From Agathobacter sp. (GTDB lineage: Bacteria; Bacillota; Clostridia; Lachnospirales; Lachnospiraceae), in NCBI GenBank assembly GCA_036308285.1, contig JAXJVZ010000292.1, positions 1 to 21,071 of the forward strand: 21,071 nt of DNA, in the 5' to 3' direction. The position numbers were made by a program, and so were the translations under genes. Below, piece after piece: positions 1,886 through 18,217 of this stretch; within the stretch, counting starts at the first letter, position 1, and the number at the start of each line of letters is the position of its first letter. The notes beneath the pieces are model-generated. The model worked only from the letters and a program-made list of their open reading frames with translations, did no database searches and was not told the origin of the DNA.

Positions 1886-2755
1886 ATGCCTGGATTAGAC
1901 AAATTCTATACTTAGAAGCACGTAGCAAAAGAGTGCTTTGAATTTTTACATAAACAATTAAATATTCCCGAATCAGCTATTTATCTTGAGCCAAGTGCAG
2001 GAGCAGGTTCTTTTATTGACCTACTTTAGCATTATATTGCTCTTGATATAGCTCCAGAAGACGATCGTATTGAAAAACAAGATTATCTAAAATATCAAAC
2101 AGATAAAACTGATTTTATTACTATTGGTAATCCTCCTTTTGGTAATCGATCTAAACTGGCAACTGATTTCTTTAATAAGGCGGCTTCTATGTCTGAAGTT
2201 ATCGCCTTTATTGTGCCAGTTTCTTTTATGAAATGGAGTGTTCAAAAGAATTTAAGTTCTAATTTTTCTCTTCATAGCTATATGTATCTTGAACCAGAAT
2301 CATTCTCAGATAATGGTCAGCCATATAGCGTCAGAACTGTTTTTTAGATTTGGGTAAAAAATGGTTCTGTCTATGATAATGGAACTAATTTGCGCTTAAA
2401 GAAATCTCCCCCAGTATCCCACTCAGACTTTAAGATTTGGCAATATAATGCCACTCCAGAAGCAGTCAAGTATGTAGACGAAGATTGGAAGTATGCCACT
2501 TATCGACAGGGTTATCATAATTATAATGAGACATTTACTCATAAAGATTATGAATATATTAGAGAAAAAATGACTGGCGCAAAGAAGCAGCAATTTTTCT
2601 TTATTAAACCATTGACTGCGGAAGCAGAGAAAATTATTCTGGAAATGGATTTTAATGCTTTGGCTGAACGAAATACTGCTACACCAGGTTTCGGTAAGGG
2701 TGATTTTGTAAGCTATTATACTGAATTAAAGGAGTCAAAATATGGAAATTCCTAA
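1886..2755 (+). CDS. N6-adenine DNA methyltransferase (gamma class: motif I EPSAGAGSF before motif IV NPPFG), readable only if three in-frame TAG codons (1913, 2027, 2345) are sense
   Basis: ATG at 1886 with an AAAGGAAA RBS. A single 290-codon frame contains FxGxG and (D/N)PPF motifs in gamma-class order. It is interrupted only by TAGs, never by TAA or TGA, and ends with TAA. The ORF track reports only the last 121 aa. Confidence 0.65.
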
Positions 2756-3758
2756 GCAAACATATCAATATAAGAATGTTAATTACGACTTGGAATAGAT
2801 TCTTGCTTTCTACCAGACTAACCGAATTGACACAAACCTTGATTGTCAACGAGGTTATGTCTGGACCCCAGAGCAGAAGCAACAGTTAATTGACACTCTT
2901 GTTTTTAGAGAACGTATTCCTGAATTTCATGTTATCAAAGAAGCTGAGGAATCAATTTTCCATTACGCTGATGGAAAACAGCGTATTACTACAATTATCA
3001 ACTTCTTAACTGATGAATTGCCTTGGGAGCGCAGTCAAGCAGATCCTGCTTTTAGAGCGCTGTTTAATAAGAAATCTAAATTAAAATTCTCTGAATTACC
3101 AGACAATTTTAGATATATGATTCTTAGTACTCAAATTCCAATGGCTTGTTATAGTAATATGACACCTGCGTCCACTACAAAGCTATTTAGAAAACTAAAT
3201 AGCGGCACATCCTTGGGAGAATTCCAAAAGGGTCTAGCAGAAAATATCTCTATTAAGCAATATTTTCTAAATGATCTAATGCTTCATCCTGTTATTCCTA
3301 AGATTTTTAATAAATCTAAAATTGAAAAAGGTAATGCGGAACAGGCTCTTATTAGAATTATGATTCTTATGGAAAAATTTGATAACGGAGAATCCTTTGA
3401 ATGTAGTTTGCGCCCACCTGAATTATCTAAATATTATCTTGACCTTGAAAAAGCTACAGAAGCAGAGAGCTGGGCTTATGTTGAGAAACTTCAACATTAT
3501 AAGAGTATTATCAAGAAATTTTTAGATCAGCTTAATACTTCTAATATTGATTTAATGACTCGTTCCGATTATGTTTTACTCTTTAGCGTATTTTATGCTT
3601 ATAAAGACAAATTGAGTGAAGATGGTATGAAAATTTTATATGAAGAACTAAATTCAACTAATGCTACCGCTATCGCTGGTAGTGGTGCCGATTATAGTTC
3701 TGTAAATATTAAAAAATTCCTCAAATACATAGATAAAATCGTATATACAAAAACCTAA
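2742..3758 (+). CDS. DUF262 (ParB-like/GmrSD N-terminal nuclease domain) protein, with one in-frame TAG at 2796
   Basis: Motifs …LDCQRGYVWTPEQKQQLIDTL… and …HYADGKQRITTI… match the DUF262 signatures (QR.Y.W and DGQQR). An ATG at 2742 overlaps the MTase stop. The ORF track starts only at 3018. Confidence 0.6.
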
Positions 3759-3769
3759 TATATATTATA

Positions 3770-3798
3770 TTGAAAATATTAAAAAAATATGATATAAT
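3770..3798 (+). promoter_or_regulatory. sigma-70-type promoter P3 (TTGAAA 3770-3775, 17 bp, TGaTATAAT 3790-3798)
   Basis: Cassette copy with leader ATATACATAAAGTTAAGAAAGGAAAA before the ATG at 3833. Confidence 0.65.
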
Positions 3799-3832
3799 AT
3801 ATACATAAAGTTAAGAAAGGAAAAAAGAAAAT

Positions 3833-17019: not shown

Positions 17020-17889
17020 ATGAACGAAGAGTGGAAATGGATAAAAGGTTTTGAAAATTAGTATCAAGCTTCTAATTTAGGTAGAATTAGAAGCTTTAAA
17101 GCCAATAAAAATGGTACAATATTAATGGGAAATACTCTTAAAGATGGTCGGGTTAGAGTAAATTTAAATGGTAAAAAGTATTTACTTCATAGATTAGTTT
17201 TAATGGCTTTTTGTCCAGAATTGGAAACTAATGAAAATTGTTTGGTTTTACATAAAGACGGAAATCCATCAAATAATACATTAGAAAATTTAAAATGGGG
17301 AAGTTATAAAGAAAATGCGAATGATGAACTAATGCATCAAAGATGTAAAATTAAAGTAAAAAATTCTAAATAGCATAGAGAAGAATAGCAAAATTTAATC
17401 ATAGAAGACGAGCTGTGGAAAGATATTTAGGGATATGATGGAGATTATCAAATATCTAACTATGGACGAGTTAAATCTTTAAAAAGAAAAAACCCTTTAA
17501 TTTTATCTCCAATTTTAGGTAGAACTGAAGATTATTATTCTATAGGACTAACTAAAAATGGAAATAAATCACATTATTCAATAGACAGATTAGTTGCTGA
17601 GGCTTTTATTCCTAATCCAAATAATTACCCAGAAGTTAATCATATTGATGAAAATACAAAAAATAATAATGCTAATAATTTAGAATGGGTTACTCATTCA
17701 CAAAATATTAAGCATAGTGCTTATCGTCAAAGTTATCCAGTAGCTCAATATGATAAAAATTATAATTTAATAGCAAAATATAAAAGTGTAGCAGAAGCAT
17801 CTAGGCAAACTGGGTATGCTCGTTCAAATATTAAATCAGCCATTGAAAGAAATGGAACTTGTCATGGATATATATGGAAATATTTATAA
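17020..17889 (+). CDS. HNH homing endonuclease with two tandem NUMOD4-HNH modules (I-HmuI-like) and a C-terminal HTH; four in-frame TAG codons
   Basis: The first module is EEWKWIKGFEN(Q)YQASNLGRIRS … HRLVLMAFCP … LVLHKDGNPSNNTLENLKW. The second module is ELWKDI(Q)GYDGDYQISNYGRVKSL … IDRLVAEAF … EVNHIDENTKNNNANNLEWVTHSQN. The C-terminus is …SVAEASRQTGYARSNIKSAIERNGTCHGYIWKY. Only TAGs interrupt the 289-codon frame, which ends with TAA. The ORF track shows only an 82-aa piece. Confidence 0.65.
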
Positions 17890-17907
17890 CTAGATAAAAA
17901 ATCTTAA

Positions 17908-17936
17908 TTGATTTTTATAAAAAAATATGATATAAT
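17908..17936 (+). promoter_or_regulatory. sigma-70-type promoter P8 (TTGATT 17908-17913, 17 bp, TGaTATAAT 17928-17936)
   Basis: Cassette copy with leader ATATATATAAAGTTAAGAAAGGAATGAATCCA before the ATG at 17969. Confidence 0.7.
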
Positions 17937-17968
17937 ATATATATAAAGTTAAGAAAGGAATGAATCCA

Positions 17969-18217
17969 ATGTATAGTAATATTCGTTAGAAGACTGCAGC
18001 AATGGGTTGCCTTGGTTGGACTATTGCGATTATCGGTTGTCTGGTTTTGATTGCCGGTGCAATTTGGCTGGACTTATTCTTAGCAACTCTGTTGTGGAGT
18101 TCTGTAATGTGTCCTATTTTTAATCTGCCTGTTCTGTCTATGTGGCAGATGTTCTGCGTTAAGGTCGCACTGTGGTTCTGTATGCCCACGAGAATTCACA
18201 CTGTAAAGACTAACTAA
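17969..18217 (+). CDS. small Cys/Trp-rich membrane protein (82 aa if the TAG at codon 7 is sense; 71 aa from the ATG at 18002 under the standard code)
   Basis: The ATG at 17969 has the canonical spacing from the cassette RBS. There are two predicted TM helices (WTIAIIGCLVLIAGAIWLDLFLATLLW and FCVKVALWFCM). Confidence 0.45.

Follow-up and report, generated by a model that had tools for sequence, protein, structure and literature searches.

Positions 1 to 21,071 of contig JAXJVZ010000292.1 (the window) carry genes in which TAG is a sense codon, and alignment with homologues indicates that this codon is glutamine, as in genetic code 15. The window probably belongs to a large gut phage using code 15 and having two classes of genes, in which the TAG-bearing genes would be made after suppression of TAG and the islands carrying many of them would move among recoded phages.

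When frames were called over the six reading frames with TAA and TGA as the sole stops, seven window frames were found to be open only if TAG is translated (Table 1). Over about 1,600 codons they contain 24 TAG but neither TAA nor TGA, as the original prediction for this DNA had claimed, and their translations are coherent proteins. The six genes that are clearly accessory total 1,532 codons and lack in-frame TAA and TGA altogether; at the out-of-frame TAA plus TGA rate of about 0.089 per codon, the probability of such openness by chance is about 1e-62. The N6-adenine-methyltransferase-like product (methylase) has a readable motif I (EPSAGAGSF) and motif IV (NPPFG) and matched PHROG 799 'DNA methyltransferase' (E = 3.8e-13) and phrog_5172, with no match in Pfam. 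Its gene overlaps by 14 nt the gene of a DUF262 protein, which matched GmrSD_N in Pfam (E = 2.7e-12, residues 34-173). No Pfam domain was detected in the C-terminal half of the latter, and no partner nuclease (DUF1524/HNH of GmrSD, or a restriction endonuclease) was found; as the N-terminal GmrSD_N was the only domain detected, the view of the pair as a restriction-modification system was not upheld. Homing-endonuclease-like genes A and B (genes A and B hereafter) are paralogues, both with a DUF2726-type C-terminus and with matches, at the level of annotation, to PHROGs annotated as HNH, homing or intron-encoded endonucleases; the product of gene A combines N-terminal LTGxxFGxL / W.C.C.CG repeats with a C-terminal DUF2726-like nuclease domain and matched PHROGs 374, 559, 9084 and 7140. 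A small helix-turn-helix (HTH)-like gene lies upstream of gene A with an 8-nt overlap and generated a weak, below-threshold match to HTH_17 (E = 3.9e-4); both genes are on the minus strand, which had been left unstated in the original prediction. The HNH homing endonuclease contains NUMOD4, HNH_3 and NUMOD1 in Pfam and matched PHROG 59. The seventh frame encodes a small membrane protein.

Table 1. Features of the window (positions in nucleotides from the first letter; GC, guanine-plus-cytosine fraction; aa, amino acids)
Feature	Position	Strand	Details
N6-adenine-methyltransferase-like gene	1886-2755	+	289 aa, GC 0.34, 3 TAG at 1913, 2027, 2345
DUF262/GmrSD_N-domain gene	2742-3758	+	338 aa, 1 TAG at 2796 (codon 19)
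Homing-endonuclease-like gene A	6371-7117	-	248 aa, GC 0.25, 4 TAG at codons 58, 71, 144, 205
Small HTH-like gene	7110-7283	-	57 aa, 1 TAG at codon 4
Homing-endonuclease-like gene B	8122-9057	+	311 aa, GC 0.30, 10 TAG
TAG positions of homing-endonuclease-like gene B	8149, 8359, 8476, 8524, 8551, 8578, 8872, 8923, 8929, 9034	+	
HNH homing endonuclease	17020-17889	+	289 aa, GC 0.27, 4 TAG at 17059, 17371, 17386, 17428
Small membrane protein	17969-18217	+	82 aa, GC 0.42, 1 TAG at 17987 (codon 7)
Vault-like protein gene, TAG-free backbone example	3833-6346	+	837 aa, GC 0.47; Gln codons 29 CAG, 1 CAA, 0 TAG
SPFH/flotillin-like gene	19639-21069		
Strain-variable segment with gene A and the HTH-like gene, opposite strand	6347-7377		missing in L045 and L038
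Strain-variable segment with gene B	8010-9056		missing in L045 and L038
Strain-variable segment with two small AT-rich genes without TAG	9353-9763		missing in L045
Strain-variable segment with the HNH gene	16717-17902		missing in L045
Promoter/5'-UTR (untranslated region) repeat, about 45 nt, five copies	3778-3822, 7402-7446, 12807-12852, 16053-16098, 17916-17960	+ for first copy	

The assignment of glutamine comes from two gene families. Gene B was aligned codon by codon in four recoded orthologues (window, L008, L007 and L009) and the standard-code homologue of contig L005. TAG positions vary among the orthologues, and at 12 columns TAG in one sequence stands opposite CAA or CAG in another. 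Of the 71 residues opposite TAG, 27 were glutamine against a background of 3.2% (12-fold enrichment, P = 2e-22). For the methylase, homologues at 80-86% identity number in the hundreds, and its TAG codons 10 and 154 correspond to an invariant glutamine in 13 homologues, within the motifs FYTQ and VFQIW; the standard-code orthologue on L051, a 142-kb contig where TAG ends 2 of 18 genes, has CAA at both codons. The positions of the LTGQ motif are likewise glutamine in homologues whose source is NCBI or JGI or which were shown to be translatable with the standard code. That TAG stands for another residue (pyrrolysine, Tyr, Lys, Glu or Leu) could be argued from the Lys (13/71) and Glu (7/71) found opposite TAG at variable columns, but Lys is enriched merely 1.7-fold, Leu is not enriched, Tyr and Trp are absent, and the FYTQ, VFQIW and LTGQ positions are glutamine where the standard code applies, so we regard this as highly improbable. 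By these alignments, TAG is glutamine in the window genes, in agreement with the original prediction.

Termination in the window gave the complementary result: in the curated gene list, TAA ends 27 of 30 complete genes and TGA the other three, with no TAG terminator, as had been claimed. Nor did a TAG terminator appear among about 60 non-redundant genes of the lineage. Counting TAG as sense raised the coding density of the window from 0.74 (code 11) to 0.90 (code 15), by a crude greedy tiling of open reading frames. The TAG-bearing genes also recur elsewhere. Gene B was found in two other samples (L003 and L004) with one or two substitutions and 10/10 TAG kept, and the methylase/DUF262 pair was found with TAGs in eight further contigs (L037-L044) at 93-97% nucleotide identity; the same genes with the same TAGs in independent samples exclude an artefact of sequencing or assembly. 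When TAG is scored as a glutamine codon, the ratio of nonsynonymous to synonymous substitution rates (dN/dS) of the TAG-containing genes tested was 0.02-0.14 overall: 0.14 for gene B against orthologues at 75% and 65% identity, 0.03-0.08 for the methylase (0.08 against an 81% orthologue), and 0.02-0.13 for the DUF262 gene, the same range being found among close strains. These ratios indicate that the TAG-bearing genes are under purifying selection and kept as full-length proteins. Selfish nucleases often decay, and the genes in question are AT-rich and strain-variable, so that they might be taken for pseudogenes of selfish elements in which TAG is still a terminator. This reading is effectively refuted by the count of 24 TAG against no TAA or TGA, the low full-length dN/dS, the identical TAGs across samples, the TAGs on invariant glutamine positions and the absence of genes ending in TAG, and we give it almost no weight.

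Standard-code annotation fragments the recoded genes, as had been foreseen: cluster members of 61-141 amino acids in JGI and MGnify are fragments of the 289-amino-acid methylase, and standard-code gene calls on contig L045, from a sister strain, include two fragments that end at TAG. In this region none of the mobile nuclease genes and neither gene of the methylase pair survives such annotation intact, and the lineage has to be annotated with code 15.

The genes of the window fall into two classes. The backbone class has a GC fraction of 0.35-0.52 and encodes glutamine mostly by CAG, while the AT-rich class has a GC fraction of 0.25-0.34 and uses CAA plus TAG; the TAG-bearing members of the latter are genes A and B, the HTH-like gene, the HNH endonuclease and the methylase/DUF262 pair. 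At third codon positions the GC fraction (GC3) was 0.13-0.25 in the islands versus 0.3-0.64 in the backbone. Glutamine codons of the accessory genes comprised 23 TAG, 39 CAA and 12 CAG (TAG about 30%), and the 155 of the backbone genes comprised 1 TAG, 24 CAA and 130 CAG. In a pooled set of 60 non-redundant lineage genes (window, upstream portion of L037, downstream portions of L046 and L047), TAG was present in 14 of 21 genes with a GC fraction of at most 0.34 versus 3 of 39 richer genes (P = 3e-6). Base composition was rejected as the sole reason for the TAG-free backbone. TTG/(TTG+CTG) in the backbone is 0.21, so that a neutral C-to-T synonymous choice predicts about 27 TAG (deficit P about 1e-14); TTG thus makes up 21% of TTG plus CTG, whereas TAG makes up less than 1% of TAG plus CAG. 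Because the deficit exceeds what composition predicts, selection acts on TAG somewhere in the genome, and because the backbone is essentially without TAG, it is translatable by unmodified host machinery.

The sole backbone-type window gene with TAG is that of the small membrane protein. It has an alternative ATG start at 18002 (codon 12), downstream of its TAG, so a product is also possible from the internal ATG under the standard code. Its orthologues on L046, L048 and L050 have the same upstream ATG, promoter and ribosome-binding site and no TAG. The protein occurs as two N-terminal alleles with the same start (17969-18217 in the window, 99-344 in L046); in the TAG-less allele, CTG is aligned to the ATG of codon 12.

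The original prediction held that TAG occurs only in AT-rich accessory genes and is confined to these rather than to late structural genes. The first part is nearly true within the window, and beyond it TAG occurs in late-type genes. As the window contains no structural gene, the absence of TAG from late structural genes cannot be read from it, and relatives speak against such an absence. The same-lineage contig L047, which encodes an identical Metallophos_2 protein, carries a 480-amino-acid gene matching tail-fibre PHROGs with one TAG; the closest relative in IMG/VR carries 2 TAG in a PhoH-like gene and 7 TAG in an endolysin-like gene. In a 402-kb relative, TAG is found in a gene that is lysin-like by sequence, two tail-fibre-like genes, a metallophosphatase, DHFR and a GIY-YIG gene, while replication-type genes (topoisomerase-like) are TAG-free even at a GC fraction of 0.35. 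The pattern in these relatives is the one described by Borges et al., in which early genes are compatible with the standard code and late or lysis genes are recoded. In the distant relatives L053 (13801-14886) and L059 (13831-14823), a gene encoding a transmembrane segment, a coiled coil and a GIY-YIG domain carries 5 and 9 TAG, respectively; this conserved gene is among the most TAG-rich seen.

Comparison with the sister strain L045 revealed four window segments that are missing from it (Table 1), with flanks 93-99% identical. No match to group I or II introns was obtained from Rfam around the endonucleases in the window and five loci, and the endonucleases were therefore treated as free-standing. 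The metallophosphatase at 16300-17016, beside the HNH gene, shows only about 69% identity to the L045 allele and has a GC fraction of 0.30 versus 0.40. From its low identity and AT-richness, it looks like a gene co-converted during homing. Among 63 members of the nuclease family recovered in IMG/VR, 41 carry in-frame TAG, which accounts for about 28% of their glutamine codons, and the family circulates widely among recoded phages. Homologues of the nucleases were also found in Bacillus-type genomes and in an SPbeta-like contig.

The stop of gene B overlaps the start of cREC_REC (TAATG at 9055-9059), hyp78 and cREC_REC overlap by ATGA in the endonuclease-less strain L045 (880-883), and in the standard-code SPbeta-like contig L005 (10001-11029) the nuclease is fused in frame to cREC_REC (P0018). 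The TAATG overlap and the fusion point to a repeated association of the nuclease family with cREC_REC genes. Other TAG-rich genes, strain-variable and very AT-rich (GC fractions 0.25-0.27), lie downstream of SPFH in sister strains. L046 carries at 3865-5094 a radical-SAM/SPASM gene, inserted after SPFH, in which 11 of 16 glutamine codons are TAG, and L047 carries at 9171-10163 a radical-SAM/SPASM gene with 5 TAG. Small companion open reading frames and a Cys/Gly-rich 209-amino-acid protein adjoin these genes, and judged by gene content the neighbourhoods may be a peptide-modification cassette.

The concentration of TAG in the islands might be a matter of history and not of regulation, the islands having been imported from AT-richer, TAG-using phages with the codon usage of the donor and the backbone being TAG-free for reasons of its own, such as early expression or older ancestry. 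We consider this a serious possibility, somewhat short of an even chance. It is consistent with the GC3 and CAA/CAG preferences that separate islands from backbone, the presence/absence polymorphism of the islands and the apparent co-conversion of the HNH-flanking gene, as well as with the free turnover of TAG with CAA and CAG and the lack of positional preference of TAG in the 41 recoded IMG/VR members. The backbone TAG deficit beyond the prediction of composition speaks against it. Six of the 7 window genes have a first TAG no more than 20 codons from the start (P = 7.5e-4, for a feature chosen post hoc), and codon 10 of gene B is TAG in 4/4 recoded orthologues though the synonymous divergence (dS) exceeds 1; both also argue against history as the whole account. 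Import of this kind is, moreover, compatible with gating of expression through TAG.

The repeat of about 45 nt in Table 1 consists of an extended -10 element (TGnTATAAT) followed by AAAGTTAAGAAAGGA (regular expression over the window); its consensus, AAAAAATATG(A/T)TATAATAT(A/T)TATA(C)AAAGTTAAG(G)AAAGGA, comprises a conserved leader and a strong Shine-Dalgarno site. The copies precede the vault-like gene, hyp102, NAMPT, hyp66 and the membrane gene, and head TAG-free backbone operons. By their consensus alone they are putative promoters, and five extended -10 copies suggest transcription by the host polymerase, i.e. early expression.

In the reading that we favour, TAG would have to be suppressed before full-length accessory proteins could arise. 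By analogy with what is known of other code-15 phages, the agent would be a phage tRNA with a CUA anticodon (tRNA-CUA) encoded elsewhere in the genome, possibly together with altered release-factor activity. The nucleases in or beside early operons would stay untranslated early and be made late, alongside the TAG-bearing lysis and tail genes outside the window, and the high TAG content of the islands would also reflect their history of moving among TAG-recoded phages.

A number of observations weigh against this reading. Two genes, hyp349 (8 glutamine codons) and the metallophosphatase at 16300-17016, are AT-rich yet TAG-free, and two or three higher-GC genes carry one TAG each. The timing of expression is taken from the promoter consensus alone. 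No tRNA-CUA was detected by ARAGORN in the window and 84 loci (about 1.3 Mb, including about 60 kb of the same lineage), no tRNA match by Rfam in the window and five loci, and no release-factor gene was seen, in scans that covered only part of the phage genome; the search for a suppressor tRNA proposed in the original prediction thus came out empty over this fraction. The window itself contained no tRNA of any kind and gave no match to Rfam, and the sole tRNA in same-lineage DNA was tRNA-Trp(CCA) in L047. The early position of the first TAG was not significant in more distant relatives (4/15, P = 0.24), and in the 41 recoded IMG/VR family members TAG made up 27-33% at the N-terminal LTGx motif versus 28% elsewhere. 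As the early-TAG signal fails to generalise, the TAG density of the islands may be inherited and not a selected gate. An 'N-terminal TAG gate' as a general feature was accordingly rejected, being significant in the window and lost in the distant relatives and the 41 family members.

The lack of a suppressor is itself open to different interpretations. Published surveys found suppressors in 40-60% of recoded genomes (bioRxiv 10.1101/2021.08.26.457843; PMC13037316), and in only 40% of TAG-recoded genomes in Borges et al. (bioRxiv 10.1101/2021.08.26.457843). Recoding might instead come from the host, which would read TAG as sense or carry an amber suppressor and be matched by the phage; recoded jumbo phages with no detectable suppressor have been noted (PMC13037316), and none was seen in the accessible sequence here. 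The suppressor scan covered only a fraction of the genome, and strong avoidance of TAG in the backbone would be unexpected if TAG were readable from the start of infection. We also know of no bacterial lineage in which TAG is glutamine, and we regard a host origin of the recoding as very unlikely.

Suppressor gating of the nucleases is plausible but unproven, and gating and imported codon usage are equally good, non-exclusive accounts. The suggestion in the original prediction that potentially toxic genes are expressed under suppressor control therefore has local support from the early TAGs, from a signal that is not general, and the idea was already in Borges et al. A stronger version, in which TAG recoding would be a containment of selfish or toxic genes in early operons, selection would keep TAG within the first 20 or so codons, and cREC_REC would be made switch-dependent, seems to us doubtful. 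If it were true, the endonucleases and the methylase pair would be tolerated because they are silent until the code switch, and the overlap of the gene B stop with the cREC_REC start would make a backbone gene depend on that switch.

Much of this biology has precedents. Recoded clades comprise crAss-like and Lak phages and the 'gemstone' clades Jade, Sapphire, Agate, Garnet, Amethyst and Topaz, among which Firmicutes-infecting code-15 clades have already been described, together with a model in which the early genes fit the standard code and the late ones are recoded (Borges et al., bioRxiv 10.1101/2021.08.26.457843). Code 15 has been proved experimentally (Peters et al., PMC9523058), and code-15 jumbo phages are found in the rumen, pig gut and human gut (PMC13037316). 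The window shares with the code-15 gut phages the alignment of in-frame TAG with glutamine, the lack of TAG terminators, TAG in lysis and tail genes of relatives, a standard-code-compatible block of early-type genes, recoding of only a minority of genes (7/31, versus clade means of 26-71% in Borges et al.), a gut metagenome source and Firmicutes-type translation signals. It differs from them in that the recoded genes are nearly all mobile nucleases and the methylase pair, and in that neither a suppressor tRNA nor a release factor turned up in the accessible part of this lineage.

The closest precedent for the nucleases is in Agate phages, where an early gene contains a group I intron homing endonuclease recoded at TGA, whose translation was read as blocked until the code switch (bioRxiv 10.1101/2021.08.26.457843). 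Common to both is a selfish nuclease among early genes with in-frame recoded stops; in the window, however, the codon is TAG and not TGA, and the endonucleases are free-standing and intergenic and number three, from two families. With recoded jumbo or huge phages (PMC13037316; LR756500-LR756503) the lineage shares recoding confined to parts of the genome and related contigs of 402-415 kb. The PMC13037316 survey found no preference for a protein type, whereas here TAG is strongly linked to AT-rich genes, including strain-variable nucleases.

The known features are thus TAG-to-glutamine recoding in large gut phages, Firmicutes clades with it, partial recoding and a recoded homing endonuclease in an early gene. 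What the window adds is a sharp local contrast between TAG-free operons headed by putative promoters and TAG-rich, AT-rich genes, with several strain-variable nuclease islands. Gene by gene, the locus cleanly illustrates 'two codes in one genome', and it can serve to test whether recoded stops control the expression of selfish nucleases or are simply the mark of genes circulating among such phages; it leaves the understanding of the phage genetic code unchanged. The study of Borges et al. reportedly appeared in Nat Microbiol in 2022.

T4-like and SPbeta-like phages also carry free-standing homing endonucleases. The window endonucleases resemble these in intergenic insertion, presence/absence polymorphism and divergent flanks. 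The SPbeta-like contig L005 has a standard-code nuclease homologue, whereas the window copies are translatable only under code 15.

Judging from its relatives, the source of the window is likely an uncultured gut phage with a large genome, probably of jumbo or huge size. The window showed no close match to GenBank phages by megablast, an exact 50-mer had no match in IMG/VR and an exact 40-mer none in JGI metagenomes, and the only GenBank-phage relatives of the vault-like protein (MVP_shoulder, E = 1e-17, and Vault_3 repeats in Pfam) were in the huge-phage records LR756500-LR756503, at 41% identity. The vault-like protein is 69% identical to one on the IMG/VR contig L012 (65 kb, syntenic with the window), and the SPFH gene of L012 matched 24 IMG/VR contigs of up to 402-415 kb. 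Same-lineage contigs in assemblies of the European Nucleotide Archive measured 58 kb (ERZ28617177 scaffold_27), 67 kb (ERZ27298553 k141_495836) and 134.7 kb (ERZ27298551 k141_280501); going by the sample labels, the source samples may come from studies of cattle faeces. The window contains neither a terminase nor a capsid gene, and the same-lineage loci retrieved contain no terminase. A Shine-Dalgarno motif precedes 24 of 30 genes, against a background of 18%; such strong use fits a Firmicutes-type host and does not fit Bacteroidetes, and the host probably uses Shine-Dalgarno sites and is likely a Firmicute. The host type named in the original prediction is thus compatible with the translation signals, and the novelty attached to it for code 15 falls away, since Borges et al. 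had already described such phages. A scan of bacterial genomes with the methylase hit two contigs from metagenome-assembled genomes only and was uninformative on the host.

Backbone products include the vault-like protein, cREC_REC, an RlaP-type nucleotidyltransferase, an AAA_33 kinase, metallophosphatases, a SleB-type cell-wall hydrolase, NAMPT, macro, NAD synthase, NADAR and the SPFH protein. Genes at 9057-9362, 10596-11968 and 18481-19598 form an RNA-repair-like set of a cREC_REC receiver, RlaP/NTP_transf_2, an AAA_33 kinase-like protein and two metallophosphatases. Genes for NAD+ salvage and the handling of ADP-ribose form a block at 12865-16035 (NAMPT, macro domain, NAD synthase, NADAR); in L037, DNA just upstream of the window encodes a nicotinamidase-like isochorismatase and a phosphoribosyltransferase (L037 1784-3356). 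The block is reminiscent of NAD+ reconstitution by phages against NAD-depleting defences, a putative role here.

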